Positions 1-35,715 of a stretch of 64,000 bases of DNA are shown here, piece by piece (position 1 is the first letter of the stretch; the number at the start of each line of letters is the position of its first letter). The DNA comes from an uncultured Gammaproteobacteria bacterium (lineage in GTDB: Bacteria; Patescibacteriota; Patescibacteriia; SBBC01; CAIJZX01). The stretch lies in contig CAYGGC010000001.1 of assembly GCA_964349465.1 (NCBI GenBank), positions 124,375 to 188,374 of the forward strand. The letters are read 5' to 3'. The notes under the pieces were generated by a model. The model saw nothing but the letters and a program-made list of their open reading frames with translations. It ran no database searches and had not been told where the DNA came from. Made by a program: the position numbers and the translations under genes.

Positions 1-2705
1 ATTGTCCAACCTGCCAGGGCGAGGGTTTTCTTATTCAGCAACATGGCGCATCACGTCGTTGTCCAACCTGCCAAGGTGTTGGCCTGACGACCTGGTGGTC
101 GGGAGCCTGGTGGACGTGGCGTCATCCGCTGACCGATTTTTCTATCGCTGAACGCCGGATGGAAAAAAGCATTCGGGTGGTGTTGTCAGCCGCGTGTCTC
201 GCTGTGTTTGGGCTCGGCCTGTGGTTTGGCGGGCGTGAGCTCGCCCCCGCGTTCGACCGTCAGGAAATTCTTTTTACTCTGCTGTCGCGCAGTTGGCCGA
301 TGACGATGTGGTGGTTTGGCTGGTTGGCGGTATTATTTTTCATTTTTCGTTTGATTCGTGCCAGGACCGCTTTTCCAAGCATACCTCGCGGTGCGCAAAC
401 GACACCAGCGGCAGACCTGAATTGGTCGAGCCCGGTTTCGTGGGGTGACGTGGCTGTTTGTTACACCGATGAGACGATGGCGGTCCTGGAACAGGCCTGG
501 CTGATGGCAAAATCCGCTCATGCCTCGACCCTGACACCTCTCCATGTTCTGGCTGCGGCGGTTACCAGGCCGAGCGTTGGAGCGATGTTTATCCGGTTGA
601 ATATTGCGCCGTCTGAATTGCGTGAGCGTGCTTTACGTACGACTGCTACGGCCACATCGTCTGATCCAGAGCTTGGTGCAGCGGTCCGAACGCTGTTGGT
701 CACGGCCTTTCATTTAGCGGCCCTTGATGGCCGTGAACGCGTGAGTCCACCGTATCTCGTGGCCGCGATGGCCGAGCTGGCGGATCCGGCGCGCGAATTA
801 CTCTACGATCTGAACGTTGATGAGCAAAAGTTTGCGCATGTGATTGAATGGATGAAGATTCAAGAAGACCTGCGTTTGAATTTGCGTCGTTATGCTAGTC
901 GTGCGGCCGCCAAACCGAAAGGGGCAATTGATCGCGCATATACCGCTTCGGCCACGCCCCTCTTGAATCGATTCAGTGTCGACCTGACTCGGTTAGCGCG
1001 TGACGGGCGTTTGCCGTACGTGATTGGTCGTGATGATCAACTCAAACACGCCTTCCGAATTGTTGAGAGTGGTCGCCGGAGCGTCCTCTTTGTTGGCGAA
1101 GCCGGAGTCGGATTAACGACCCTCCTTCACGCCGTCGCCGAACGCATGGTTACCGAAGATGTTCCGGAAACCCTGCAAGATAAACGCCTGGTGTTGCTGT
1201 CGGCTGCCTCCTTAGTAGCCGGCGCTGGGGCGGTCGGTCAGCTCGAAGAGCGAGTGGAGGCGATTTTGACTGAGATGGTGAATGCTGGAAATATTATTTT
1301 GGCAATTGAAGATCTTGACCAACTGGTCGGCGTGACGAGCACCGGGGGGAGCGGTCTTGATGCTGCTCATCTGATCGCCCAAGAGCTCAGTCAGCATAAC
1401 CTCATTGCGTTTGCGACTGTCACGTCGACGGCGTTTCGGCAAGTCATCGAACAAGCTGGAATTGTAAACTCCTTCGAAAAAGTCGATGTCCCAGAAATGT
1501 CGGCCGATGAATCAATCGTTGCGATTGAGTCGCGGATTGGATCCTTGGAGTACAAATACAAAATCATTTTCTCGTATGACGCGATTGCGCAAGCCGTCGC
1601 GCTCTCGAATCGCTATCTCCACGAAAAAACTTTACCAGGCAAAGCAATTGAGCTGATGGAAGAAGCGGCCGTCGCGGTGAAACGAGATCGCGGCGTTAAT
1701 GCACTCGTGTCGGGTGAAGATATTGCGAAGATTGTGACTGAGCAGACGAAGATTACCGTCACGGCTATGACCGGCGACGAGCAACAAAAACTTTTGCATT
1801 TAGAAGATGAGCTTCATCGTCGCGTGGTTGGACAAGATGAGGCGGTTAAGGCTGTCGCGAACGCGTTACGTCGGGCGAGAGCTGAGTTACGTGATACCAA
1901 GCGACCAATTGCCAACCTGTTATTCCTTGGTCCGACCGGGGTGGGAAAAACAGAATTAGCGAAAACCGTTGCCGCAAGTTATTTTGGCTCGGAAGAAGCG
2001 ATGATTCGCCTGGATATGTCGGAATATCAGGACGTCTCGAGCATCAATCGACTCCTCGGCGCACCGGCCGGGTATGCGGGGGCTCAGGCCGGTGGATACC
2101 TGACCGACGCGGTTCGACATAACCCGTTTAGCATTGTCTTGCTTGATGAATTAGAAAAGGCCCATCCGGATATTTTAAATCTGTTCCTGCAGGTGATGGA
2201 CGATGGTCGGTTAACCGACAATCTTGGACGGACTGTCGACTTTACGAATGTCATTCTTATAGCGACCTCGAATGCTGGTACGCAACACATTCAACAGCGC
2301 CTCACTGAGCAAGTCCCACTAACGACGATCAAGCAAGAGCTAGTGAGCGATGTACTACTGAAGTGGTACCGGCCGGAATTCTTAAACCGGTTTGACGCAA
2401 TTGTGCTCTTTACACCATTAAACCTTCAAGAAATTGAAACGATTGTCGGGTTGATGGTGAAGGGGATTGCTGACCGTTTAGCGGCGAAAGGCGTAACTCT
2501 CCAAGCTTCCCCGGCGGCGATTGCTGAATTAGCTCGAACCGGTTTTGATCCGTTGTATGGAGCTCGACCACTTCGCCGTGCGGTCCAAGAACATGTCGAT
2601 AATGCGCTGGCGCAATTTATGTTGCAAGGAAAACTCAATCGACGTGACGTTGCTATTCTTGAGCCGGGTGGCGCTATTCGGGTTGAGACTGCCACAAAGG
2701 TATAA
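1..2705 (+). CDS. ClpC/ClpB-like two-domain AAA+ chaperone ATPase, 5'-partial (ORF-track ATG at 159). N-terminal TM helices. The upstream in-frame stretch encodes DnaJ-type CxxCxGxG zinc-finger repeats.
   Basis: The 848-aa ORF has Clp_N-like repeats and two P-loops (GEAGVGLTT and GPTGVGKTE). The frame of the 159 ATG is stop-free back to base 3 and there reads CPTCQGEGF...CPTCQGVGL, so the CDS probably continues upstream of the window. Hydrophobic segments lie at aa 8-70 of the ORF. Confidence 0.8.
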   Translation, partial: CPTCQGEGFLIQQHGASRRCPTCQGVGLTTWWSGAWWTWRHPLTDFSIAERRMEKSIRVVLSAACLAVFGLGLWFGGRELAPAFDRQEILFTLLSRSWPMTMWWFGWLAVLFFIFRLIRARTAFPSIPRGAQTTPAADLNWSSPVSWGDVAVCYTDETMAVLEQAWLMAKSAHASTLTPLHVLAAAVTRPSVGAMFIRLNIAPSELRERALRTTATATSSDPELGAAVRTLLVTAFHLAALDGRERVSPPYLVAAMAELADPARELLYDLNVDEQKFAHVIEWMKIQEDLRLNLRRYASRAAAKPKGAIDRAYTASATPLLNRFSVDLTRLARDGRLPYVIGRDDQLKHAFRIVESGRRSVLFVGEAGVGLTTLLHAVAERMVTEDVPETLQDKRLVLLSAASLVAGAGAVGQLEERVEAILTEMVNAGNIILAIEDLDQLVGVTSTGGSGLDAAHLIAQELSQHNLIAFATVTSTAFRQVIEQAGIVNSFEKVDVPEMSADESIVAIESRIGSLEYKYKIIFSYDAIAQAVALSNRYLHEKTLPGKAIELMEEAAVAVKRDRGVNALVSGEDIAKIVTEQTKITVTAMTGDEQQKLLHLEDELHRRVVGQDEAVKAVANALRRARAELRDTKRPIANLLFLGPTGVGKTELAKTVAASYFGSEEAMIRLDMSEYQDVSSINRLLGAPAGYAGAQAGGYLTDAVRHNPFSIVLLDELEKAHPDILNLFLQVMDDGRLTDNLGRTVDFTNVILIATSNAGTQHIQQRLTEQVPLTTIKQELVSDVLLKWYRPEFLNRFDAIVLFTPLNLQEIETIVGLMVKGIADRLAAKGVTLQASPAAIAELARTGFDPLYGARPLRRAVQEHVDNALAQFMLQGKLNRRDVAILEPGGAIRVETATKV

Positions 2706-2748
2706 AAAACCGTCCAGGGGTAGCGGACGGGTGAGGGGCGCTCGCAGT

Positions 2749-3303
2749 TTAACGGCGAGAGGCCAGTTCTCGTTGGCGGATGATCATTCGTCCTCGGTTG
2801 AGCGCCTCTTTGGCGCTGAGTCCGGGCTTTCTCATCGGCTGAGTGCTCGGCTTGGAGCGGAGGAACTGAACGATAATGAGATCGTCATCTTCGCCGACGC
2901 GGCAGATCGCCCGCCCGTTCTTGATCACGAAGATCGTCGGGTCGGCAGCGTGCATCGCTGACATCAAGTAGACGAGACCGAGATCGGCCTGACTGGTCAA
3001 CCCAATCTCGAACCGTTCAGGTTCGATCCGGTGAAACCGCGGCCGATCGAGGCGCTCGAGGTACTCCCCGAAGCGGGTCAGGGTTTCCCGCCTGACCATG
3101 AACGCTGGCTTGCGCCATTCCGAGTTGATGGTGTTGACTAGGCGTCGACCGGCGGCCGTCATCTGGTCGGTGTGCCAACTCAAGTTGGTCAGGTTGACGA
3201 TCCGAAGGTCGTGGTGATGGACGTGAACCGGCTGACCGGAACTGGAAAGCAGATCATGACTGCAGGTGATGACCAAAGCAAATCCATGTGGATTCGTCGC
3301 CAT
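2749..3303 (-). CDS. Hypothetical His-rich protein of 185 aa. Start moved to the internal ATG, which has a GGAGGA RBS; the ORF track starts at a TTG at 3405.
   Basis: ATG at 3303-3301 is preceded by CACGGAGGAAGC. Contains the PVHVHHHD and SAMHAADP motifs. No confident family assignment. Confidence 0.4.
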   Translation of the reverse strand: MATNPHGFALVITCSHDLLSSSGQPVHVHHHDLRIVNLTNLSWHTDQMTAAGRRLVNTINSEWRKPAFMVRRETLTRFGEYLERLDRPRFHRIEPERFEIGLTSQADLGLVYLMSAMHAADPTIFVIKNGRAICRVGEDDDLIIVQFLRSKPSTQPMRKPGLSAKEALNRGRMIIRQRELASRR

Positions 3304-3410
3304 GCTTCCTCCGTGAAAGGTACACATCGTGGCTACCAGGGAACAGTGAACAACAACTGGCAACAGATGAAGGAGCACGATAGCATTTGACGCGGAAAAA
3401 GTCAAGATCC

Positions 3411-3445: not shown

Positions 3446-5146
3446 ATGTCAAAAGCTTCAGCTGACATGGAAAAAATCGTCAACTTAGCGAAACGCCGCG
3501 GGTTTGTTTTTCCGTCCAGTGAGATATATGGAGGTTTAGCTGGTTTTTGGGATTGGGGACCGCTTGGTGTTCTTCTAAAAAACAATATAAAACGAGAATG
3601 GTGGCGGACTTTTGTCCAAAAAAGGAGCGATATGGTTGGTATTGATGGCACAATAATTTCCGCACCCAAGGTTTGGATGGCAAGCGGGCATGTTGATACC
3701 TTTGCTGATTTTTTAGTTGATTGCCAAAACTGTAAACACAGATTTCGTGGTGATCATTTGATTGAGCAATATACTGAGCAAAGCATTGTAGATTTTGCAA
3801 TTGCTTATCTTAGCGATTGGATTGAGTCAATTAGCGAAAGATATGGTAATGCAATAGTTAAAAAAAAGATTTCTCTTGAAGACTTAAACATTAGGGTTGC
3901 TGAGTCAAGAAAAAATCTTCTCGAATCAGGTATTGATCCTGACGAGGTATTAGAGGAATCAAAAAAGAAAAAGAAATTGATAATAAAAAGTGCCTCTGAT
4001 CGTCAAGAAGACCTTTCTCTTGATGCGGAATTTGAAGCTTGGAAAAGGGTAAAATCAAACATAGGAGAATTTATTAATCATTACATATATTACTCCCAAA
4101 TTCCCTGTCCTTCATGCAAAAAAACTGGTGAGTTTACAAAAGCGAGAAAATTTAATTTAATGTTAAAAACCAATATTGGTCCCGTTGAAGACTCTAGTAG
4201 CACCGGGTATTTGCGTCCTGAAACCGCGCAAAGCATTTTCATTAACTTTGAAAATGTCCGTGAATCAACGAGGAAAAAGCTGCCATTTGGTATCGCCCAG
4301 ATCGGCAAAGCCTTCCGGAATGAAATCACGCCTGGAAATTTTGTGTTCCGCCAACGGGAATTCGAACAAATGGAAATCGAATATTTCGTACGGCCGGGCG
4401 ATGACGACGCGCATTTTTCCACCTGGGTTGAAATGTGTTATCAATGGTTCCTCTCTTTAGGACTGAAAGCCGAGCATCTGCGCAAGTTTGAACAGCCGGC
4501 CAGCGAGTTGGCGCATTACTCGAAAGCCACAACAGATATTGAATTCACCTTTCCAATTGAAAAGGGTTGGGGCGAATTAATGGGGATCGCGAATCGGACT
4601 GATTACGATTTGAAACAGCACGGGCAGCACGCGAAGGGGAGTCCCGAAGCTTTTGCGACGCCGATTGACGACGAAGGGAAAGAGAAAAAAGTCCCGTTTG
4701 TGATTGAGCCGTCGATGGGCGTTGATCGCGCGGCGCTGGCCTTTCTGCTCGATGCGTATACCATCATCGATGGTGGTCGGTCCACGACGACCGAAAGTAT
4801 TAAAGACGAAGAAGTGGTGCTCAAGTTGCACCCGCGTTTAGCGCCATACACCGTGGCGATTTTACCACTCTCAAAAAAGCCGGAGCTAACCGCGATCGCG
4901 GAACCGTTGCTGGCTGAGCTGCGAAAAACGTGGATGGTTGATTATGATCAAACTGGTTCGATTGGGAAGCGCTACCGACGTCAGGACGAAATTGGTACCC
5001 CGCTGTGCGTGACCGTTGATTTCGATACGATCGAAGGTGTGAAGCGCCCAAAGGGAACCGTCACCGTCCGTGATCGCGATACCATGGAACAACATAACGT
5101 CGCTATTGATGAACTTCCGGCCTACGTGGCGGAGCGTCTCCGCTAG
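3446..5146 (+). CDS. glyQS: Glycine--tRNA ligase, dimeric glyQS type.
   Basis: N-terminal MEKIVNLAKRRGFVFPSSEIYGG...WDWGPLG signature, class II motifs, paired CxxC knuckles, C-terminal anticodon-binding domain. The first ~800 bp are markedly AT-rich. Confidence 0.9.
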   Translation: MSKASADMEKIVNLAKRRGFVFPSSEIYGGLAGFWDWGPLGVLLKNNIKREWWRTFVQKRSDMVGIDGTIISAPKVWMASGHVDTFADFLVDCQNCKHRFRGDHLIEQYTEQSIVDFAIAYLSDWIESISERYGNAIVKKKISLEDLNIRVAESRKNLLESGIDPDEVLEESKKKKKLIIKSASDRQEDLSLDAEFEAWKRVKSNIGEFINHYIYYSQIPCPSCKKTGEFTKARKFNLMLKTNIGPVEDSSSTGYLRPETAQSIFINFENVRESTRKKLPFGIAQIGKAFRNEITPGNFVFRQREFEQMEIEYFVRPGDDDAHFSTWVEMCYQWFLSLGLKAEHLRKFEQPASELAHYSKATTDIEFTFPIEKGWGELMGIANRTDYDLKQHGQHAKGSPEAFATPIDDEGKEKKVPFVIEPSMGVDRAALAFLLDAYTIIDGGRSTTTESIKDEEVVLKLHPRLAPYTVAILPLSKKPELTAIAEPLLAELRKTWMVDYDQTGSIGKRYRRQDEIGTPLCVTVDFDTIEGVKRPKGTVTVRDRDTMEQHNVAIDELPAYVAERLR

Positions 5147-6824
5147 CTTTCTCTTGGCCGTAGGGTTGGCACTGCCGGCCCAGGCTCAAGGCTCGAATTG
5201 GACGATGTCGTTTTTTCGATCCGACATTTCTGTCCATGACGATGCAAGTATTACTGTCACCGAAACTATTCAGGCCGATTTTTCCGTCGCGAAACACGGT
5301 ATCTTCCGCAACATTCCCTGGCGATACACAACTGACGATGGGGGGACGATGCAGGTCCCGGTTCAGGTTACGCGAGTGGCTAGAAACGGGGAGTCTGAAC
5401 CGTACACAACCTCATACAGTGGTGACAATCTGGAAATAAAAATTGGTGACGCGGACACAACGATCACTGGTGAACAAACCTATACAATTGAGTATTCCGC
5501 CCAAGCGGCGGTGAACTTTTTTTCTGATCACGACGAGTTGTATTGGAACGCGACCGGACATGACTGGGAAGTGCCGCTCGGGGCGGTTGAGGTCTCCGTT
5601 CGACTTGATACGCTCGTTGCGAAAGATCAGCTTCAGGTTCGATGTTTGACTGGAGTCGTCGGCTCAACCGCATCGGACTGCGTGGCTACGACGGATGATT
5701 CCGCTGTTAGTGCAACAACCGTCGGACAACCGTTAACGGTGGTATTCGGTTGGCCGCCTGGCTTCGTGACGAAGCCGGAGAACTACGATCAGATCCGATC
5801 GACGGCCGGGACGACGTTAATTGAACGGATTTTCAAAACCCCAATTGTTTTTTGGGGCCTGAACGGAGCGTTCCCGTTGTTGGCGCTGATGGGGATGATG
5901 TGGCACTGGCGTCAACGCGGTCGCGATGTACCGGGCAAAGGGACCGTTATCGCGCAGTATGAGCCACCGTCGGGCCTGACGCCTGGGGAAATGGGTACCT
6001 TATACGACGAGCAGGCGAATCATCGCGACGTGATTGCGACGATGGTTGATCTCGCGGTCCGTGGTCACCTCACGATTACGCAGCTGACCACGAAGAAATT
6101 CCTTGGCACAAGCACTGACTACCAGCTCGACCAACTTCATCCGACGAAGACGACGCCTCTGAAGGATCATGAAAAGCAGATTTTGGAGGGACTGTTCAGT
6201 GGCGGAGAGCGTGTGACCTTATCAAAACTCAAAGGAACTTTTGCGGACGATGTAAAAAAAATACAGGGCTCGTTGTATGACCAGGTTCGTGATCAAGGAT
6301 ATTTTACGGCTAATCCAAATACGATCCGCACGCTCTATATTGTCGCCGGACTTATTGTGGCTGGGGCTGGTTTCTTCCTCGTACCCTTTTTGATCTTCGG
6401 GCCAATAGTGGTCGGCCTGGTAATTGCCGGAATAGGACCGTTCATGCCGAAGCGAACCGCCAAAGGGGCGGAAGCACTCTGGCACGCGAAAGGCTTTAAA
6501 TTGTTTCTCGAGAAGGCGGAAAAATATCGGATCAAGTGGCAAGAAAAAGAAAATATTTTTGAAACCTATTTGCCGTACGCGATGGCGTTCGGGGTGGCGG
6601 ATAAATGGACGAAAGCCTTCGAGGGTTTGCAAAGAGAATCGCCGGGCTGGTTTCATGGTAACGGGAACACGTTTAACACCATCATGTTTTGGTCCGCCTT
6701 GAATAGCTTTAGTACGGCCAGCGCGAAAAGCTTTGCCCCACCGGCGGCGAGTGGTGGGTCAGGCCTAGGCGGGGGCGGTTTTTCTGGCGGTGGCTTTGGC
6801 GGCGGCGGAGGCGGGTCATGGTAG
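5109..6824 (+). CDS. DUF2207-like membrane protein: signal peptide, extracellular domain, two TM helices and a Gly-rich C-terminal tail.
   Basis: Signal-peptide-like MNFRPTWRSVSASFLLAVGLALPAQA from the internal ATG at 5109 (ORF-track start 5070 overlaps glyS). C-terminal GGSGLGGGGFSGGGFGGGGGGSW is typical of DUF2207. Confidence 0.6.
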   Translation: MNFRPTWRSVSASFLLAVGLALPAQAQGSNWTMSFFRSDISVHDDASITVTETIQADFSVAKHGIFRNIPWRYTTDDGGTMQVPVQVTRVARNGESEPYTTSYSGDNLEIKIGDADTTITGEQTYTIEYSAQAAVNFFSDHDELYWNATGHDWEVPLGAVEVSVRLDTLVAKDQLQVRCLTGVVGSTASDCVATTDDSAVSATTVGQPLTVVFGWPPGFVTKPENYDQIRSTAGTTLIERIFKTPIVFWGLNGAFPLLALMGMMWHWRQRGRDVPGKGTVIAQYEPPSGLTPGEMGTLYDEQANHRDVIATMVDLAVRGHLTITQLTTKKFLGTSTDYQLDQLHPTKTTPLKDHEKQILEGLFSGGERVTLSKLKGTFADDVKKIQGSLYDQVRDQGYFTANPNTIRTLYIVAGLIVAGAGFFLVPFLIFGPIVVGLVIAGIGPFMPKRTAKGAEALWHAKGFKLFLEKAEKYRIKWQEKENIFETYLPYAMAFGVADKWTKAFEGLQRESPGWFHGNGNTFNTIMFWSALNSFSTASAKSFAPPAASGGSGLGGGGFSGGGFGGGGGGSW

Positions 6825-19191: not shown

Positions 19192-20253
19192 ATGGACATT
19201 GCTGTCATTGCCCTGATCGTCGTTTTACTGGCCGTTGTAGGCGTGATTTTTTCGCGTCTCTCCAGTACGACGAAAATCCTTCAGGAACTGAAAGATCAGA
19301 AGGGGAATGACCAGGCCTCGATCCTCCTGAATCAAAATATTCAAGGCCTCCAGCAACGCCTCGACTCGCAAAACCAGAATCTCCAGTCGACCCTCCAGAA
19401 GCAATTTGGAGACAGCGCGAAAATTATTCAGGATGTGACCGAGCGCCTAACGAAGCTTGATGAGACGAACCGCCAAGTCGTCGGTTTTGCCGATCAGCTC
19501 AAACGCCTCCAAGATACGCTCAACAACCCGAAACAGCGCGGCGTCCTCGGTGAATATTACCTTGAGACGGTATTAAAAAATGTTCTGCCACCGAAGAACT
19601 ATAAACTCCAGTACAAATTTAAGGACGGAGAAATTGTCGATGCGGCGATTTTCATCCAAGATAAAATTATTCCGGTCGACGCGAAATTTTCCCTCGAAAA
19701 TTATAACCGCTTAGCGGAACTGACAACCGAATCGGATCGTGAACGGGTCGAAAAAGTCTTTAAGCAGGATTTAAAGAATCGCATCGACGAAACCTCGAAG
19801 TATATTCGGCCGGGTGAGAATACGATGGACTTTGCGTTCATGTTCATTCCGGCGGAAGGGATTTATTACGATTTGCTCGTCAATAAAGTTGGCGCGGCTG
19901 GCGTTTCGTCCCGTGACCTGATCGATTACGCCTTTAAGGAAAAGCACGTCATCATTGTTTCGCCGACGTCGTTCTTCGCGTATTTGCAAACAGTGCTGCA
20001 AGGCTTACGCGCAATGCAAATCGAAGAAGGGGCGAAAGAGATTCGGAAGAACGTTGAGGTTCTGGCCAAGCATCTACAATCTTATCAAGGTTATATGGAT
20101 AAGCTTGGCAACTCTCTGAATACGTCGATGAATCACTATGGCGCCGCCCAAAAAGCCTTTGAGCGGATTGATAAAGATGTCTTAAAGATTGCCGAGGCAG
20201 AAGTATCCGAATCAAAGCTGATTGAAAACAACATGGAAAATGAGCGATCCTAA
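19192..20253 (+). CDS. rmuC: DNA recombination protein RmuC.
   Basis: N-terminal TM segment, a long coiled-coil and a conserved C-terminal RmuC domain. Confidence 0.85.
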   Translation: MDIAVIALIVVLLAVVGVIFSRLSSTTKILQELKDQKGNDQASILLNQNIQGLQQRLDSQNQNLQSTLQKQFGDSAKIIQDVTERLTKLDETNRQVVGFADQLKRLQDTLNNPKQRGVLGEYYLETVLKNVLPPKNYKLQYKFKDGEIVDAAIFIQDKIIPVDAKFSLENYNRLAELTTESDRERVEKVFKQDLKNRIDETSKYIRPGENTMDFAFMFIPAEGIYYDLLVNKVGAAGVSSRDLIDYAFKEKHVIIVSPTSFFAYLQTVLQGLRAMQIEEGAKEIRKNVEVLAKHLQSYQGYMDKLGNSLNTSMNHYGAAQKAFERIDKDVLKIAEAEVSESKLIENNMENERS

Positions 20254-20419
20254 GAAAAACGAGAGCCATGAAGAGGAGTTATTAACTGGTATTTCGTCTG
20301 CAGAATTTGAGATACAAATTAAAAAACTTGGAGAAGAGGCAAAGAAGAACCCAATATTAAAATCGCTAGGTACGGCATCAACGGAAATTCTTGAAGAAGT
20401 CCGGGAAAAGGATGAGTAA
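20240..20419 (+). CDS. Small acidic protein of 59 aa (65 aa from the 20222 ATG). It overlaps the rmuC end and the PIN-gene start. Candidate antitoxin-like partner.
   Basis: An intact ORF in 36% GC DNA with a 29-nt overlap onto the downstream PIN gene. No recognisable DNA-binding motif. Confidence 0.3.
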   Translation: MSDPKKNESHEEELLTGISSAEFEIQIKKLGEEAKKNPILKSLGTASTEILEEVREKDE

Positions 20420-20972
20420 CCTGCCATCATTAATCCTTTTAGATACGATGGCTGCGGCAGGAATTTTTTCTGATAGGCAAGAAAAACAAAAAAAGTGGGT
20501 GTCTACCATTCTACATTTGATCGCTTTTCTACCAGAAGCAGACATTACCATCCCCACACCTGTTTTTTTGGAGTTAGCGCAGTGGCATGTCAACTGGTAC
20601 AAATACGTTCAGAATATCAACCAGCCGAGTATCTCTAGCAGTCCGTTACTTAAGTACGTAAGCTATAGTATTCCTAAAAAAGTATTTTATCCGGCTGCCG
20701 CCTATAAACTTTTTTGTTCAAATAAGCAAAATAAGCCAGATGAATTTCGTAAAGAAAAGAATAAGATATCATTTATTGATTCTCTTTTAGCTTCATATTG
20801 TCTAACGTATAATTACGCTCTAGTAACGGAGAATCATAATGATTTTCCGGACAAATATTTTAGTATCGTTAAAGTTGCGACCTCTCCTGAATCAACCGGC
20901 ACAGAAAGGCGTCTACTCTTTTTGTTAAAACCTAATACCGAGGCATGGAGAAACGATTTATCAAGGATATAA
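20391..20972 (+). CDS. PIN-domain protein (VapC-like) with a ~60-aa insertion, in an AT-rich island.
   Basis: LILLDTMAA (Asp1), VFLELAQ (Glu), IDSLLASYCL (Asp3) and LVTENHNDF (Asp4). About 36% GC versus ~55% in the flanks. Confidence 0.65.
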   Translation: MKKSGKRMSNLPSLILLDTMAAAGIFSDRQEKQKKWVSTILHLIAFLPEADITIPTPVFLELAQWHVNWYKYVQNINQPSISSSPLLKYVSYSIPKKVFYPAAAYKLFCSNKQNKPDEFRKEKNKISFIDSLLASYCLTYNYALVTENHNDFPDKYFSIVKVATSPESTGTERRLLFLLKPNTEAWRNDLSRI

Positions 20973-20983
20973 CTTCGGAAAAC

Positions 20984-21014
20984 AAAAGCCGGTGTTGCGC
21001 AACACCGGCTTTGT
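20984..21014 (+). terminator. Rho-independent terminator after the PIN gene.
   Basis: GCCGGTGTTGCGCAACACCGGC followed by TTTGTG. Confidence 0.6.
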
Positions 21015-21374
21015 GAGAGGGCGCTTCGTTTGCCCGACCCTTGGAGCGACTCAACCCTGATCTTCAACAGCTCTGTATTTACTCGTCGTTCCTCCGGCGC
21101 GTGTGACTAAAAGTCTTTTCTCGTTTCGGCCCATCGTTTCCCCATGTAGTCCTGACGGAGTTGAAGTTGGCTTTTTTGCCAGCTCTCTTCGTGGTTTGGC
21201 GCCAAACCGTTCTACTTCGGTACTGCGATTGGCGACAGTGTAGCATAGGGTTTTATTGTTGAATAGTTTACATAAGTGTCAGGTGGAAACTGGTCGCGCA
21301 TTCGCTAACCTTAGCCAAAAAGTTTTACAACCCTTGCGTAAGTCGCCGGAAAGTAGTAGACTCGTGGCGCCTTT

Positions 21375-21698
21375 TTGGCTATGACTAGCGAAAATCCATT
21401 ACAAAATAGCGGTGACGGTGGCCCTTCGGCAGGCTCAGGGCGCCCTCTGTGGACGGCCCTCAACCTTGCCTGGGAGCTCGGGTATACTATTGTTATCCCG
21501 TTAGTCCTCTTCGCCCTCGCAGGCCGGTTCGCCGATAAACAGTTCGGCACGTCGCCCTGGCTGCTCCTGGCTGGGATGGCCCTCGCGATTACGGTAACGA
21601 CGATTGCGCTGGTCCGTAAGTTCTCGAAATTGATTAACGATATGAATAAAGAGATTCCGGCTCAAGGCCGGAATGACAAGAACCCTGATGGCCGCTGA
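21375..21698 (+). CDS. atpZ: AtpZ/AtpI-like small membrane protein, first gene of the ATP synthase operon.
   Basis: Two TM helices with FADKQFGTSPWLLLAGMALAI matching the AtpZ (ATPase_gene1) consensus. Confidence 0.6.
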   Translation: MAMTSENPLQNSGDGGPSAGSGRPLWTALNLAWELGYTIVIPLVLFALAGRFADKQFGTSPWLLLAGMALAITVTTIALVRKFSKLINDMNKEIPAQGRNDKNPDGR

Positions 21699-21716
21699 TC
21701 CCGTTAGAGTTGACCC

Positions 21717-21977
21717 ATGTATTACGTCTACGTTCTACGAAGTATCAGCAGCGGTCGTCTCTACACAGGCTATACTGAAAATCTACGGAAACGCTTGAGT
21801 GAACATGTTGAAAAGAAATCTAAGTACACCAAACATCGAGGTCCATACGAACTTATTTATTACGAAGCGAGTAAACACCGATACGACGCAATGGCACGAG
21901 AGATTTATTTGAAAAGTGGAATGGGTAAACGATATCTTCGCAATCGAATGAAAAGGTTTTTCTCAAGCGTTTCCTAA
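21717..21977 (+). CDS. GIY-YIG nuclease superfamily protein (UPF0213/YhbQ-like) inserted between atpZ and atpB.
   Basis: YVYVLRSISSGRLYTGYTENLRKRLSEH, a GIY-YIG core. The gene is AT-rich relative to its surroundings. Confidence 0.8.
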   Translation: MYYVYVLRSISSGRLYTGYTENLRKRLSEHVEKKSKYTKHRGPYELIYYEASKHRYDAMAREIYLKSGMGKRYLRNRMKRFFSSVS

Positions 21978-21987
21978 CTCTAACGGG

Positions 21988-22737
21988 ATGGCCGCTGAAA
22001 TCAACATCTCGCTCGCTGCTGAACCGATTGCCCACCTCGGTAGTTTTCCGATTACCAACAGCATGCTCGGGTCGTTGTTGGCTGGGGGAGTCTTAACGCT
22101 GATTGCCTGTGCCGCGGCGAAGCGCCCGAAGATGGTCCCGACGAAATTACAGAATGGCGCTGAGATGATTATCGAGTTCTTGTTGAATCTGATGGATAGC
22201 GTCACCCACGACCGGGCGAAGACGAAAAAATTCTTTCCGGTGATCGCGACGATTTTCCTGTTTATTATGTCGATGAACTGGATGGGCCTCCTGCCGATTT
22301 TCGGCACGATCGGCCTGAATGAGGTTCACGATGGTCATAAAGTCTTTATTCCGTTTCTGCGAGCCGGAACGGCTGATTTGAATATGACGATTGCGATTGC
22401 GATGATTTCCGTCATCTCAGCTCAGGTGTTCGGGGTGATGTATATCGGTATCAAGAAGCATCTGCGCAAATATTTCAATCCGAATCCGACCTTTACCTTC
22501 GTCGGGATTATTGAATTCATTTCCGAATTCACGAAAATCATTTCCTTCTCGTTCCGGTTGTTCGGGAATGTCTTCGCTGGGGAAGTGCTCCTGCTCGTGA
22601 TTGCCACCCTCTTACCACTCGTCGGACCGTTGCCGTTCTACTTCCTCGAATTGTTTGTGGGGTTCATTCAGGCGTTTGTGTTCGCCCTCCTCTCCTTGGT
22701 CTTCTTCACGATTGCGTCGACCGCGGAGGAGCACTAA
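21988..22737 (+). CDS. atpB: F0F1 ATP synthase subunit a.
   Basis: A-subunit TM topology with the conserved Arg in RLFGNVFAGE. Confidence 0.9.
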   Translation: MAAEINISLAAEPIAHLGSFPITNSMLGSLLAGGVLTLIACAAAKRPKMVPTKLQNGAEMIIEFLLNLMDSVTHDRAKTKKFFPVIATIFLFIMSMNWMGLLPIFGTIGLNEVHDGHKVFIPFLRAGTADLNMTIAIAMISVISAQVFGVMYIGIKKHLRKYFNPNPTFTFVGIIEFISEFTKIISFSFRLFGNVFAGEVLLLVIATLLPLVGPLPFYFLELFVGFIQAFVFALLSLVFFTIASTAEEH

Positions 22738-31127: not shown

Positions 31128-34100
31128 ATGGTAAAATCTCTGCCTATGCCCGGCGAAATTCCATCCCAGGTCAACCCCGAACAGCAAGCTGCTATTCACC
31201 ATGGCCAAGGCCCATTGTTAATTGTGGCGGGAGCAGGGACCGGAAAAACGACCGTCGTGACCGAGCGGATTGCCCATCTGATCATGGACCAGCAGGTCCC
31301 GTCGGATAATATCCTCGCCCTGACGTTTACCGACAAGGCCGCTGGAGAAATGCAGGATCGGGTTGAACGGATTTTACCGTTCGGGTATGTCGATTTATGG
31401 GTGATGACGTTCCATGGATTTGCCCAGCGACTTCTCAAAGATCACGCGCTCGACATCGGCCTGTCGAATGATTTTAAGCTTTTATCACAAACAGATCAGT
31501 GGCTACTCATTCGCGAACACCTCGATGAGTTCGACCTCGACCACTATCGGCCGCTCGGCAATCCGACCAAGTTTATTACGGCCCTGGTCAAGCATTTCTC
31601 TCGTCTGAAGGACGAAGATATTACGCCGGAGGAATACGTGAAATATGCAAAAGGGTTGGCGAAGGGCAAGGCCAAGAAATCCGATGAAGAGAAAGCCGAA
31701 GCTGAACGGACGATGGAACTTGCGAAGGCGTATTCGACGTATAACCAACTTTTACTCGACACCAATGCGCTTGATTTCGGTGATCTCATTGTCTATACCC
31801 TCCGCCTGCTTCGCGAACGCCCGGCGATTCTCAAGCACTACCAAAAACAATTTCAATATGTCCTCGTTGACGAATTCCAAGACACGAACTGGGCGCAATT
31901 TGAATTGATTAAGCGCTTGTCGGCGCCACGGAATAATTTGACCGTCGTCGGCGACGATGACCAGTCGATCTATAAATTCCGCGGCGCCTCGGTTTCGAAT
32001 ATTCTCGAATTCAAAAAAGATTTTCCTGACGCGGACGTCATTGTGCTAACGAAGAACTATCGAACCCGCCAATCCATTCTTGATCTTTCTTATGATTTTA
32101 TCCAGCACAATAATCCGGACCGTCTCGAAGCAAAAAAGGAAGCACTGGGTGGATTGCAGATTGTGAAGAAGCTTATGTCCCAGCGCGAGGGGAAAGGTGA
32201 GATCGGCTTAATCCACGTTGAGACGCAAGAGTCGGAAGCGCGAAGCGTTGCTGAAAAAATTGATGAGCTGAAAAAATCTAATCCGGAGTTGTCCTGGGAC
32301 GCGTTCTGCGTCCTCGTTCGGGCAAACGACCATGCCGAAATTTTCATTAACGAGTTTGAGCGGCGTGGTTGGCCGTATGTTTTTTTAGCCGCGCGCGGAT
32401 TATTCACCAAGCCGCTAGTGATTGATCTCCTGGCCTATTTGCGTTTGCTGGATAATTATCACGAAAGCGCCGCGCTCTATCGTGTTCTCGCGATGCCGAT
32501 CTGGGACATTGATCATGCGGATATTGTTGAAATCGCGTATCAGGCGAAGAAAAAAACCCAGTCGCTCTACGAAGCGATCAACGACGCTCCAGCCGGAATT
32601 TCTGAAGCGAGTCGGAAAGGGATTACCAAACTCCTGGGCCACATCGCGGCTCACTCACAATTGGCACTGGCCCAGCCGGTCGGCGAGGTGCTCTTACACT
32701 TTCTCAATGATTCTGGGTATTTGCAAGACATGACCCGGGAAGAAACCCTCCAGTCACAACAGCAATCAGCCATTCTCCGCCAACTGTTTAAGGTGATTGA
32801 AGCCTTCCAGCACGGGAATCCCGCGGTTGGTTCGAGTCACGCGACGGTAAAAAGTTTTTTGAAATATATTGAACATGTCACGGAGTCCGGTGATGCCGGA
32901 GCGCTTGAGCGAGATATGGAAGCTGGACCGGAGACGATGAAGATCATGACGGTCCACGCCGCCAAGGGCTTGGAGTTTCCGTACGTCTTTATAGGTAACG
33001 TCGTGGAACAGCGTTTTCCAGGCCAAGACCGCAAGGATCCGATTCCGGTCCCAGACGCCCTCATTCGAGAAATTTTGCCGCAAGGCGACGCCCATCTGCA
33101 GGAAGAGCGGCGACTGATGTATGTCGCGATTACTCGCGCCCGCGACGGTGTATTCTTTACCTTAGCCGAAGATTACGGCGGGACGCGGCGCAAGAAGCCC
33201 TCACCGTTTATCTATGAACTGCAACTGCTCGCGCCGCCGGTCAAAGCTGAAAAGAAACCGCCCCTGCCAGAGCGTTTGTTTACTCCCACGCCGACGCAGG
33301 TGAAGGAGTCGGCCGCCTATCAGCTCCGTGAAAAACACTATAGTTTCACGAAACTGTCGACCTATAATGATTGCCCGTGGAAATACCGCTATGCCTTCGT
33401 CCTGCAAGTACCGAAGCGGGGAAGTCATGTCCTCTCCTATGGCTCATCCATCCATAAAACGTTACAAAACTTTTTTTCACTCTGGAAACAGCGCCAGCAT
33501 GATGGTATGACCGAAAAAAATCCAGTCAATCTCGAAGAACTACTGACGATGTACCGCCAATCCTTCATCGAAGAATGGTACCAATCAAAAAAAATCCGGA
33601 ATGAGTATTACGCGAAAGGGGAGGCGGCGTTGAAAACATGGTATACGAAAACAGTTCAGGCTCCGCCCGACGTCCTGCGGCTTGAACAAGTCTTTAATTT
33701 GAAAGTCGACGAGTTTGTCGTGAATGGCGCGATCGATCGCATTGATCAAATTGGCGTTGATGAAAAAACGAAAAAACCACAAGTGAAAATTGTCGATTAC
33801 AAAACCGGGAAGGTCAAAGAGAAATTTGAAAAGGATGATAAATATCAGCTTTTGATTTATACATTAGCAGTGAAGGATCCAAATATTCTTGACGGCGAAG
33901 TCACGGAGTTGGAATATTATTTCGTCGATGAAAATGCATCGCGGACAATGGTGCCAACCGAAAAAGACGCGACTGCGGCGCTTGATTGGGTCCGGGCCAC
34001 GGTGAAAGGGATTCAATCCGGTGATTTCCGGGCGACGCCGAACGAGATGATTTGCAAATTCTGCGACTATAAGGAAATTTGCGAGTTTCGAGCAATATAA
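31128..34100 (+). CDS. UvrD/PcrA-family superfamily-1 helicase fused to a C-terminal Cas4/AddB-like PD-(D/E)xK nuclease with a Cys cluster.
   Basis: AGAGTGKTT Walker A and UvrD motifs. C-terminal VDYKTGK, QLLIYTL and CKFCDYKEIC, plus an upstream CPW Cys (4Cys Fe-S nuclease pattern). Confidence 0.85.
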   Translation: MVKSLPMPGEIPSQVNPEQQAAIHHGQGPLLIVAGAGTGKTTVVTERIAHLIMDQQVPSDNILALTFTDKAAGEMQDRVERILPFGYVDLWVMTFHGFAQRLLKDHALDIGLSNDFKLLSQTDQWLLIREHLDEFDLDHYRPLGNPTKFITALVKHFSRLKDEDITPEEYVKYAKGLAKGKAKKSDEEKAEAERTMELAKAYSTYNQLLLDTNALDFGDLIVYTLRLLRERPAILKHYQKQFQYVLVDEFQDTNWAQFELIKRLSAPRNNLTVVGDDDQSIYKFRGASVSNILEFKKDFPDADVIVLTKNYRTRQSILDLSYDFIQHNNPDRLEAKKEALGGLQIVKKLMSQREGKGEIGLIHVETQESEARSVAEKIDELKKSNPELSWDAFCVLVRANDHAEIFINEFERRGWPYVFLAARGLFTKPLVIDLLAYLRLLDNYHESAALYRVLAMPIWDIDHADIVEIAYQAKKKTQSLYEAINDAPAGISEASRKGITKLLGHIAAHSQLALAQPVGEVLLHFLNDSGYLQDMTREETLQSQQQSAILRQLFKVIEAFQHGNPAVGSSHATVKSFLKYIEHVTESGDAGALERDMEAGPETMKIMTVHAAKGLEFPYVFIGNVVEQRFPGQDRKDPIPVPDALIREILPQGDAHLQEERRLMYVAITRARDGVFFTLAEDYGGTRRKKPSPFIYELQLLAPPVKAEKKPPLPERLFTPTPTQVKESAAYQLREKHYSFTKLSTYNDCPWKYRYAFVLQVPKRGSHVLSYGSSIHKTLQNFFSLWKQRQHDGMTEKNPVNLEELLTMYRQSFIEEWYQSKKIRNEYYAKGEAALKTWYTKTVQAPPDVLRLEQVFNLKVDEFVVNGAIDRIDQIGVDEKTKKPQVKIVDYKTGKVKEKFEKDDKYQLLIYTLAVKDPNILDGEVTELEYYFVDENASRTMVPTEKDATAALDWVRATVKGIQSGDFRATPNEMICKFCDYKEICEFRAI

Positions 34101-34176
34101 AAAATCCTTGGTGAAATAGCGGACAGGATTCTGCGAGTCTGTAATGTCCGTGTCGTTCCCGTGATACCGCCCCAGA

Positions 34177-34213
34177 TTTTTTTTCAAAAAAAACCTACAG
34201 CAGTATGTAGGTT
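34177..34213 (-). terminator. Rho-independent terminator of the minus-strand RNA locus.
   Basis: On the minus strand AACCTACATACTGCTGTAGGTT followed by TTTTTTTTG. Confidence 0.65.
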
Positions 34214-34217
34214 GAAA

Positions 34218-34307
34218 CGGGCGCGGCTGGATCGTCCAACACCTCTCCGACTACCCCCTTGGGAGCGCTCTGGTGATGACCCATGGCTATTATTGAGCTA
34301 CACGCCC
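34218..34307 (-). ncRNA. Degenerate tRNA-like element of ~90 nt. It has a 7-bp acceptor-like closing helix and a tRNA 5' half, but no canonical anticodon or T arm.
   Basis: 5' GGGCGTGTAGCTCAA pairs with 3' CGCGCCC. The T-arm is reduced to GGACGATCC. Possibly a pseudo-tRNA or an att-site remnant. Confidence 0.3.
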
Positions 34308-34316
34308 GAAAAATTG

Positions 34317-34390
34317 AGTTGGCGGCAGGATGTGAACCTACGACCAGAAGATTTCAAGTCTTGTGCTCTACCGGGTTGAGCTACGCCAGC
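34317..34390 (-). tRNA. tRNA-like gene of 74 nt, cloverleaf, anticodon loop CUUGAAA (anticodon UGA by position) with a short variable arm. Atypical. Identity uncertain.
   Basis: Acceptor GCUGGCG/CGCCAAC (one C·A mismatch), D-arm GCUC-AACCCGGUA-GAGC, T-arm GUAGG-UUCACAU-CCUGC. It begins 16 nt after a TTGACA-16-TAGAGT promoter. Confidence 0.45.
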
Positions 34391-34405
34391 GAAAAGAACT
34401 TTGCT

Positions 34406-34433
34406 ACTCTAGCAAATTCAAAATTCTTGTCAA
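34406..34433 (-). promoter_or_regulatory. Promoter TTTTTTCTTGACA-16-TAGAGT driving the tRNA-like pair.
   Basis: The reverse complement of 34428-34433 is TTGACA, preceded by a T-tract (UP-like). -10 TAGAGT at rc 34406-34411. Confidence 0.5.
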
Positions 34434-34465
34434 GAAAAAACCACTTCATGAGAAGCGGTCGTTTA

Positions 34466-34597
34466 GCGGAGGGGAACGGGTAGGGTTTGAACCTACTCTT
34501 TCGAAATGTACTCGAACGCTTTGTGTTGGTTCTCTCCTTCCAACCCAGGGGCTGAGCCTCCCCAGGCTCAGCCCGTAGCGATAAGCTACCGCCCCCC
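34466..34597 (-). ncRNA. Structured tRNA-like RNA of ~130 nt of unknown class. A 5' G-run pairs with the 3' end next to a canonical T-arm, and the interior has four hairpins.
   Basis: 5' GGGGGGCGG pairs with 3' CCGUUCCCC. GUAGG-UUCAAAC-CCUAC T-arm. 10-bp perfect hairpin GGGCUGAGCC/GGCUCAGCCC. Hairpin loop AAGGAGAGAA. Confidence 0.4.
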
Positions 34598-34609
34598 AAC
34601 CTGATCGAT

Positions 34610-34644
34610 AACTTAATAATGGTCCAACCGAAAGCCAATGTCAA
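34610..34644 (-). promoter_or_regulatory. Second copy of the TTTTTTCTTGACA promoter motif, driving the 130-nt RNA.
   Basis: The identical 13-mer TTTTTTCTTGACA is on the minus strand at 34639-34651. The -10 is an approximate TATTAA. Confidence 0.4.
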
Positions 34645-34662
34645 GAAAAAACTCCCGGGCCG

Positions 34663-35211
34663 TTACTCGGCGGGAGCGTGTTTGAGGTCGAAGCCCAGCG
34701 TGACCTCTTTCGCGTAGCCCGGTAGGTCCTCGAGGACCATGACGTCGGCCTGTGACTTCATGATCGGCAAGCCGCGGCCGCGGAGCTTATGAACGTCCTG
34801 CTGGTCTGGACGAGGGATCTTCCGGCTGGCCGGGAAGAGCGGCGTGCCGACTTCAACAACGTTGAAGACCCTGATCGTGCATCGTCGGTTGGAACCGATC
34901 CCAACCACGATGCAGCTCACTTGCACGTCCGATCCCGGTCGACAGTGTTGACCGGCATTGGTCAACGCTTCGCACGCGCAGTCGCTGACCCAGTGGACGA
35001 AGTTCCACGGCAGACGGTTGACGTCGAGCAGGTAGGCCTCGAGCAAGGGCATGATCAGCCCGGGAGTCGCTGCAGAACCGGCACAGCGCCAAGCTTCGCC
35101 GCTACTTTCGACCGTTCCACCAGACGCGATCGGCCACCGGGTGACCTGGCCTTTGATGATACGCTGCAGTACTGGGGTTCCATCAGGAATGTGCACGTGG
35201 GGCGTCGCCAT
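34663..35211 (-). CDS. RsbW/SpoIIAB-like GHKL ATPase (anti-sigma-factor-type serine kinase).
   Basis: VSDCACEALTNAGQHC (N-box-like) and GRGLPIMKSQADVMVL (G-box-like). ATG at 35211 with an AAAGGAGG RBS 8 nt upstream; the track's GTG at 35220 is too close to that RBS. Confidence 0.5.
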   Translation of the reverse strand: MATPHVHIPDGTPVLQRIIKGQVTRWPIASGGTVESSGEAWRCAGSAATPGLIMPLLEAYLLDVNRLPWNFVHWVSDCACEALTNAGQHCRPGSDVQVSCIVVGIGSNRRCTIRVFNVVEVGTPLFPASRKIPRPDQQDVHKLRGRGLPIMKSQADVMVLEDLPGYAKEVTLGFDLKHAPAE

Positions 35212-35322
35212 GAGATCCACCTCCTTTGGGCGATTGGGAAAGGACTGCTTCCTCTTCCTCTGGTCTACTCCCGCCCTCGACGGTTGTCAAGCGGATAAAA
35301 AATCAGTATAATCTCGAAGCCT

Positions 35323-35715
35323 ATGTCTTTAGTTCGTTTCCTCATCGTTCTGGCGATTGGCTCACTCCTGTCTTGGGCCGCCTGGGTTATGGTCCTCTTG
35401 AGTCTGGACCCGGTGAGCGGCGGATTAGTTGTGCTGGTGCTGTTCTACGTGAGTGGATCTTTGGCGCTGATCGGAACGTTGACGCTCGGTGGATTTTTTC
35501 TTCGGTATTGGTTGGAACGAGATAAAATTCCGTTTGAGCAAATTTCAACTGCCCTTCGTCAAGCCACCATTCTCACTATCGCGACCGTGATTGGCTTGTT
35601 GTTGCAGGCTGGTCGTTTACTCAATATCTGGTCGCTCATTGCCCTAGTTATCATCACCTTCATTACGGAATTTTTCTTTCTCGCCGGCCAAAGCCGACGC
35701 TCGCACGTCTCATGA
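35323..35715 (+). CDS. Hypothetical four-TM membrane protein.
   Basis: Hydrophobicity profile only. Confidence 0.5.
   Translation: MSLVRFLIVLAIGSLLSWAAWVMVLLSLDPVSGGLVVLVLFYVSGSLALIGTLTLGGFFLRYWLERDKIPFEQISTALRQATILTIATVIGLLLQAGRLLNIWSLIALVIITFITEFFFLAGQSRRSHVS

Follow-up and report, generated by a model that had tools for sequence, protein, structure and literature searches.

The locus described here lies in a 64,000-nucleotide stretch of DNA from an uncultured bacterium (contig CAYGGC010000001.1 of assembly GCA_964349465.1, positions 124,375 to 188,374; hereafter the window, in whose own numbering all coordinates are given), with an ordinary housekeeping content such as the genes for ClpB, MetRS, F-type ATP synthase, PheST, GyrB, NusG-L11-L1, GatB, MiaA, ThrRS, DnaE and FtsW. 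The relatives of its PheS belong to the Patescibacteria: identity is 40-47% with Parcubacteria-type genomes and reaches 76% with a single relative, L001 (L-numbers such as L001 and L086 are labels of the compared loci of relatives). Between a gene for a UvrD-type helicase/PD-(D/E)XK nuclease (31128-34100) and the end of a minus-strand open reading frame (ORF) for a 185-amino-acid (aa) protein (34663-35220), a non-coding gap of 562 bp (34101-34662) is found, longer than the 450 bp or so given in a preliminary description of this DNA. The gap holds on its minus strand three elements, whose origin from transfer RNA (tRNA) genes is well supported by sequence comparison: Unit 1 (34471-34597), a 74-nt cloverleaf with the anticodon UGA (34317-34390) and element 3 (el3; 34218-34307).

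The three elements are framed by signals that would allow their transcription as two units. On the minus strand, the 185-aa ORF ends within a terminator hairpin (CUCCCG...CGGGAG, 34652-34676) that encloses its stop codon and whose T-tail leads directly into TTGACA, an arrangement read from the sequence and found likewise in L086-L089. This T-tail is at the same time the T-tract of a putative promoter 1 (34616-34651), composed of the -35 element TTGACA (34639-34644), a 17-nt spacer and the -10 element CATTAT (34616-34621). Unit 1 follows, with a predicted intrinsic terminator on its 3' side (34439-34460), whose T-tail in turn provides the T-tract of promoter 2 (34406-34440), in which a 16-nt spacer separates TTGACA from a TG-extended -10 element TAGAGT (34406-34411); read in this way, the T-tract of each promoter doubles as the T-tail of the terminator before it. 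The UGA cloverleaf and el3 come next, and the second unit ends at a last intrinsic terminator (AACCUACAUACUGCUGUAGGUU and a U run, 34184-34213), with a terminator-like hairpin and T run at 34192-34213 where a strong terminator had earlier been placed (34177-34213), and converges on the helicase-nuclease gene ending at 34100. Both promoter-like sites agree with the consensus at 10 of 12 positions, two such sites were found in the 1-kb region against 0.4 expected from shuffles, and the promoter and terminator positions are kept in L086. The two sites share the 13-mer TTTTTTCTTGACA, which recurs exactly at 34639-34651 and 34428-34440, 211 bp apart, at the very coordinates given in the preliminary description. 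A third copy with one mismatch, TTTTTTCTTGACT, lies on the minus strand at 3903-3915; about 0.11 matches would be expected by chance and none of 100 shuffles gave three. Promoters in this genome seem generally to take the form of a T-tract joined to CTTGAC.

Unit 1 is a 127-nt tRNA frame with a 9-bp terminal helix and an intact cloverleaf, in which the D stem (GCUU/AAGC) encloses a 61-nt insert of two hairpins, the anticodon-like arm reads UUCGA-GUACAUU-UCGAA and the T arm GUAGG-UUCAAAC-CCUAC. It folds with a minimum free energy of -60.8 kcal/mol, which none of 200 shuffles equals (z = -3.83); the enforced cloverleaf lies 2.1 kcal/mol above this (-58.7 kcal/mol) with all its helices intact, and the insert folds alone at -31 kcal/mol. 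In the sensitive search only, the Rfam tRNA model aligns with Unit 1 from end to end (34472-34595) at 29.9 bits, against a gathering score of 29, placing a 59-nt insert in the D loop and reading the anticodon position within the loop GUACAUU as ACA, followed by U37. The terminal pairing, textbook T arm, internal hairpins and insertion of about 60 nt that had been proposed from inspection of a tRNA-like frame are all real by these measures. Such intact helices, together with a strongly folding insert, do not look like erosion. Copies identical to Unit 1 occur in L090 and L091. Three further ideas about this element were abandoned: a repeated-element origin of the insert, whose hairpin is single-copy within the window; an alanine identity, as the G3-U70 pair of Unit 1 is absent from the L001 and L083 elements; and a role of Shine-Dalgarno-like GGAG motifs in the inserts, which can be traced at least partly to the tRNA-Asp anticodon stem, one strand of which is GGAG, and are followed by no start codon.

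The second element is called tRNA-Ser(UGA) by ARAGORN (34316-34390) and scores 56.3 bits against the Rfam tRNA model (34317-34390), with C2/A71 and C27/C43 marked as non-pairs. The same alignment gives it a class I body with U as discriminator and a variable region of 5 nt, which bears out the earlier remark that a UGA anticodon with a short variable arm is atypical for serine. Bacterial SerRS requires the long variable arm of tRNA-Ser, and because this class II arm is missing here, the cloverleaf is not a normal tRNA-Ser. Given its two mismatches, it looks the most pseudogene-like of the three elements. Another call of tRNA-Ser(UGA), in L028, lies within a coding region and is spurious. At the site corresponding to the cloverleaf, tRNA-like elements are present in L001, with UCA over an anticodon stem of 3 pairs out of 5, and in L083, with CAU; these are positional counterparts of unproven orthology, and among them the anticodon is not conserved.

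In el3, an acceptor helix of 7 bp (GGGCGUG/CGCGCCC) is followed by G73, which is A in L086, a D stem (GCUC/GAGC) surrounds an enlarged D loop of 25 nt, and a 6-bp hairpin with a 3-nt loop takes the T-arm position and is stacked directly on the acceptor, in line with the acceptor helix and collapsed T arm described earlier. Its anticodon region is scrambled, variable and G-rich, with a loop of 12-13 nt, so that both the 7-nt anticodon loop and the 7-nt T loop of a tRNA are lacking in el3; it gave no Rfam match at E <= 10. The marks of a tRNA-Asp(GUC) are lacking both in el3, on account of this loop and the 3-nt T loop, and in Unit 1, whose loop is GUACAUU.

The origin of these elements becomes apparent from comparison with relatives. 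At approximately 25 other patescibacterial loci, ARAGORN reports an initiator-type CAU tRNA, a second CAU tRNA and tRNA-Asp(GUC), then pheS, in a conserved order and with the trio 100-4600 nt upstream of pheS (for instance in L007, L008, L037 and L038). Because the three window elements occupy the same pheS neighbourhood as this syntenic trio, all of them appear to descend from the initiator-Met/CAU/Asp tRNA cluster that flanks pheS across Patescibacteria, a relation that the preliminary description missed and that needs comparison to be seen. A covariance model of el3 and its orthologues (R1) retrieves these orthologues first and then the canonical tRNA-Asp(GUC) genes of L038, L008, L026 and L065 (E = 0.011-0.15), and the acceptor stem and G73 of el3 are identical to those of the tRNA-Asp of L026. 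The best non-self matches of a Unit 1 covariance model are tRNA-Asp genes as well (E = 4e-4 to 2e-3). The UGA cloverleaf is closest to CAU tRNAs of the GCCGGCG type (elongator type), a weaker ranking since CAU tRNAs dominate the reference set, and 5' and T-arm segments are common to all three elements. With the canonical genes (RF00005; the pheS-linked fMet/CAU/Asp cluster) the window elements thus share ancestry, neighbourhood, acceptor helix and D stem, and in two of three cases a canonical T arm. They differ in their changed and unconserved anticodons, in the D-loop insert of Unit 1, in the reduced T loop and scrambled anticodon region of el3, and in the absence of two of the three from the sister species.

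The stretch from the helicase gene to pheS shows rapid turnover between conserved flanks: between the window and L001 the helicase is 78% and PheS 76% identical, the adjacent 185-aa ORF only 25%. In the sister species (L086-L089, flanks 82-86% identical) one promoter, el3 and a terminator are present, and both Unit 1 and the cloverleaf are absent; the L086 leader was dismissed as a remnant of a lost cloverleaf, its local alignment with the cloverleaf region being no better than with shuffles (P ~0.84). L001 carries a 121-nt tRNA frame besides the tRNA-like gene that ARAGORN reads as UCA. In L083 two elements pass the Rfam tRNA threshold: in one (53.4 bits), 28 nt replace 11 nt of the anticodon arm, and in the other (43.5 bits) CAU is kept and the T-loop region holds 46 nt. 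The Unit 1 covariance model does not detect the long elements of L001 and L083, which were dropped as orthologues of Unit 1. At the same site L082 has no RNA, L081 another gene and L084/85 a GIY-YIG gene. When the adjacent ORF, the C-terminus of the helicase and the L001 ORF were used as queries to look for further relatives, nothing came back but the window organism itself, a single sister species and distant fragments that lack the RNAs.

A scan of 0.95 Mb of related loci for long tRNA frames (canonical T arm, perfect 7-bp acceptor, U8, total length 95-220 nt) returned four, one each in the window and L001 and two in L004, against 0-1 in shuffles, all of them in the tRNA cluster near pheS. 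One of the L004 frames (2622-2783, plus strand) holds a complete tRNA-Met(CAU) gene (2666-2738, Rfam 75.9 bits) nested in the anticodon region of an outer tRNA frame, which has identical D and T arms and the acceptor GCCGGCG/CGCCGGC; the inner gene is flanked by the complementary CCACAAA/UUUGUGG, and splicing was rejected, as the joined flanks do not recreate a CAU loop. The other (3269-3396, plus strand) is a 128-nt frame directly after a normal tRNA-Asp, with the acceptor GUCUAGG/CCUAGGC, the T arm GAGGG-UUCGAAU-CCCUU and an AGGAGGU-U6-ACCUCCU hairpin (fold z = -2.77). In L083, the element at 5075-5170 (minus strand) shows a 10-bp terminal helix (GGUGGGCUUG/CAAGCCCACC) and then an encoded ACCA; read as a 7-bp acceptor, its 3' end is ACCACCA. 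The same GGU...ACC extension occurs in the long element of L001. Splicing of the anticodon-arm insert of L083 was set aside also, this being by inspection an internal loop and not a bulge-helix-bulge. In L084/L085, a terminator and a TTGACA promoter lie in the same position between the helicase gene and the 185-aa ORF counterpart, upstream of the ORF assigned by eye to the GIY-YIG type from its N-terminus MKTYYVYILRC...

Conservation of el3 in L086-L089 reverses the earlier impression of a degenerate element, as it alone is conserved in the sister species and its helices are constrained. Between the window and L086, its helices and junction bases are identical at 35 of 40 positions and the rest of el3 at 59%, and identity at the four-fold degenerate sites of four flanking genes is 52-71%; against a neutral level of about 60%, conservation of this core has a binomial P of ~2e-4 to 9e-3. 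The anticodon region evolves at the neutral rate. Pairing in el3 is preserved, with all 17 pairs kept in every sequence and the three stem substitutions being G-C/G-U switches, and two-sided changes are absent from the orthologue alignment. Structural support for el3 therefore consists of conservation, not covariation. The evidence says that el3 is probably under constraint and not merely decaying. Among the four near-identical contigs of the sister species, 9 of 15 variable sites fall within 17 nt just 5' of el3 (L086:3947-3963 and matching positions of L087-L089) and form two haplotypes, and el3 itself has one variable site in this population.

The three elements are probably not decoding tRNAs. 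Since the T loop of el3 is deleted, not interrupted, this element is not restorable by splicing, and since the sister species does without Unit 1 and the cloverleaf, neither would be an essential isoacceptor. The reading that we favour, with a probability of about 0.5, is that these are remodelled, non-decoding paralogues of tRNAs, expressed as tRNA-like small RNAs, with el3 constrained and the other two dispensable. The earlier proposal of lineage-specific variant or insert-containing tRNAs is supported in part, as the elements are tRNA derivatives of this kind and have promoters of their own. The locus would accordingly comprise three paralogues of members of the initiator-Met/CAU/Asp cluster adjoining pheST, transcribed as promoter 1, Unit 1 and terminator, and as promoter 2, cloverleaf plus el3 and terminator. 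All three would have lost decoding features, through an unconserved anticodon, a missing Ser-type variable arm, and a D loop grown into a two-hairpin domain or a collapsed T loop, and all would have retained an acceptor helix stacked on the T-arm helix. The transcripts may mature as tRNAs do, through RNase P, 3' trimming and CCA addition, and then remain as stable tRNA look-alikes, which would act via proteins recognising the upper half of tRNA and not via codon reading, el3 representing the maintained member and Unit 1 and the UGA cloverleaf dispensable accessory copies.

Non-decoding tRNA mimics are known in YrlA, in the tRNA-like domain of transfer-messenger RNA (tmRNA) and in mammalian mascRNA, which keep the tRNA upper half and have the anticodon domain replaced. 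The window elements resemble them in the retained upper half and in the probable handling by tRNA end-processing enzymes; they match neither the YrlA nor the tmRNA model, lack a tag reading frame and are accompanied by no gene for a Ro partner among the scanned ORFs. The tRNA-like part of YrlA is internal, whereas in the window elements the RNA ends form the acceptor helix. Allo-tRNAs, in which 12-13 stacked pairs are retained together with a long variable arm and an ordinary anticodon loop, present a further case of odd tRNA architecture with a lengthened acceptor helix in uncultured bacteria, but Unit 1 has 9+5 stacked pairs and carries its extra material in the D loop. Reportedly, allo-tRNAs and tRNA-Sec-like 8/4, 9/3 and 8/5 structures were recovered from metagenomes as non-canonical cloverleaf tRNAs by Mukai et al. 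in 2017.

Several points weigh against the reading as remodelled, expressed paralogues. No el3 base pair has changed on both sides, and the similarity of the acceptor and D stem could be due to gene conversion by a genuine tRNA-Asp gene at another place in the genome, with no need for a function. Orthologues of Unit 1 and of the cloverleaf are absent outside a single organism, L090 and L091 being identical to the window. The RNAs are altogether lost from L081, L082 and L084/85, a turnover that is also compatible with decay, and expression, processing and CCA addition are all inferred.

Decaying tRNA pseudogenes are the main and a serious rival, especially for the cloverleaf, even though we regard this explanation as somewhat doubtful for the locus as a whole. 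It holds that a duplicated or displaced Met/Met/Asp cluster is being eroded by indels and point changes, that promoters and terminators are leftovers and that the RNAs have no function. The variable presence among close relatives, with one element out of three kept in L086-L089, fits such a course, as do the two stem mismatches of the cloverleaf and the incomplete anticodon stem of its L001 counterpart, anticodons that differ between lineages, and in el3 the neutral rate of the anticodon region and the missing two-sided covariation. Decay would not be expected, however, to leave el3 helices so far above the identity of four-fold sites with no stem substitution breaking a pair, nor to spare every cloverleaf pair and the full terminal helix of Unit 1 next to its strongly folding insert, nor to maintain two near-consensus promoters that are exact copies of each other. 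Streamlined genomes are also generally expected to purge dead DNA quickly. Pseudogenes and fragments of tRNA genes do occur in prokaryotes (PMC9897764) and are, like the window elements, non-canonical and tRNA-derived, lineage-specific and missed or mislabelled by annotation tools; the window elements differ from them in being full-length, in the near-consensus promoter and terminator of each unit, and in one case in helices apparently under purifying selection.

That the elements are working but unusual tRNAs seems unlikely. Inserts would then be tolerated or removed, the UGA cloverleaf would read UCN with a non-standard identity, and Unit 1 and el3 would mature into tRNA-Asp-like adaptors. 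In its favour are the Rfam tRNA scores of the cloverleaf and Unit 1, which reach or exceed the threshold, the U33 and A36-A37-A38 context of the cloverleaf (read from the sequence) along with a MiaA gene in the window, and the G73 and tRNA-Asp acceptor stem of the window el3. In Patescibacteria, moreover, genes for tRNA-Asp and tRNA-Asn are known to be concealed by group I introns, at position 35/36 (PMC13011429), and such intron-containing genes, like archaeal multi-intron tRNAs, share with the window loop interruptions, invisibility to standard finders and the involvement of tRNA-Asp. The published introns are nevertheless a different phenomenon: the window inserts, of 6-61 nt, fall short of the length of a group I or II intron and yield no intron or ribozyme family among their Rfam matches, and in el3 one loop is shortened, beyond any repair by splicing. 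Further evidence against decoding comes from the cloverleaf without the variable arm needed by SerRS, the anticodon unconserved among counterparts, the sister species without cloverleaf and Unit 1, and the ACA with U37 at the anticodon position of Unit 1.

Footprints of a mobile element, either tRNA-derived attachment-site (att) remnants, as once considered, or cargo of an integrated element or phage bringing its own promoters, are very unlikely. Hypervariability of the helicase-pheS interval, where the corresponding site of relatives holds a putative GIY-YIG gene, another, unrelated gene or nothing at all, and the strong divergence of the adjacent 185-aa ORF from its L001 counterpart between well-conserved flanking genes would suit this origin. 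The elements are, however, complete frames with both acceptor strands and not 3' fragments, the insert of Unit 1 occurs once in the window, direct repeats are limited to a promoter 14-mer and the tRNA-paralogue segments with no repeated 3' fragment among them, and no match was obtained in 50,697 phage records or viral contigs. Pfam scans of 48 annotated window ORFs revealed no integrase or recombinase domain and no RtcB or Ro/TROVE domain either.

Quality-control RNAs of the Y RNA-like (YrlA) or tmRNA-like kind, the former among the earlier suggestions and the latter already rejected for Unit 1, are largely refuted, since the tRNA upper half and G3-U70 of Unit 1 in a 7-bp frame (read from the sequence), reminiscent of the tRNA-like domain of tmRNA, and a weak YrlA alignment in L083 (24.3 bits, far below the 69-bit threshold) are outweighed by the lack of any YrlA match (RF02553) at E <= 10 in 34100-34720, of a Ro gene (Rsr/TROVE) among the scanned ORFs, of any tmRNA by ARAGORN in the window or by Rfam, and of a tag reading frame in a Unit 1 of only 127 nt, with G3-U70 missing from the L001 and L083 elements.

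The neighbouring ORFs gave no PADLOC or NCBIfam matches, and a link to a defence system was dropped on this ground. The label RsbW-like previously given to the 185-aa ORF relies on a sub-threshold Pfam match to HATPase_c_2 (21.8 bits against a cut-off of 27.4); this ORF evolves very fast and forms three clusters in 5.8 billion proteins. On the plus strand, an ORF of 130 aa (35323-35715) overlaps the start of pheS and is 91% identical in L086, with no counterpart in L001. Elsewhere in the window, the GC content dips to 0.445 in 20001-22000, compared with about 0.52 in other parts, just before the gene for the a subunit of F-type ATP synthase (21988-22737).

For annotation, the call of tRNA-Ser(UGA) is misleading, and two more tRNA-derived genes at this locus are invisible to standard finders. 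For the evolution of tRNA genes, the locus would capture copies leaving the decoding pool, one being an intact cloverleaf enlarged by a folded domain of 61 nt and another a tRNA-Asp copy of which a conserved acceptor/T helix is left; should they be no more than decaying copies, this is an ordinary, well-resolved case of tRNA gene turnover. As a tentative extension, an as yet undescribed class of expanded tRNA-scaffold RNAs may exist in Patescibacteria, in which the acceptor/T-arm helix is under selection and one loop has been turned into a new structured domain, and which would mimic tRNAs in very small genomes, whether as regulators or as decoys or sponges for tRNA-binding enzymes; the 61-nt D loop of the window, the 28-nt and 46-nt loop segments of L083 and the 128-nt and nested frames of L004 may be examples. 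In bacteria with minimal genomes, non-coding genes that are retained tend to matter, and expression of the RNAs together with binding by tRNA-handling proteins would make them a new kind of tRNA mimic in such bacteria.

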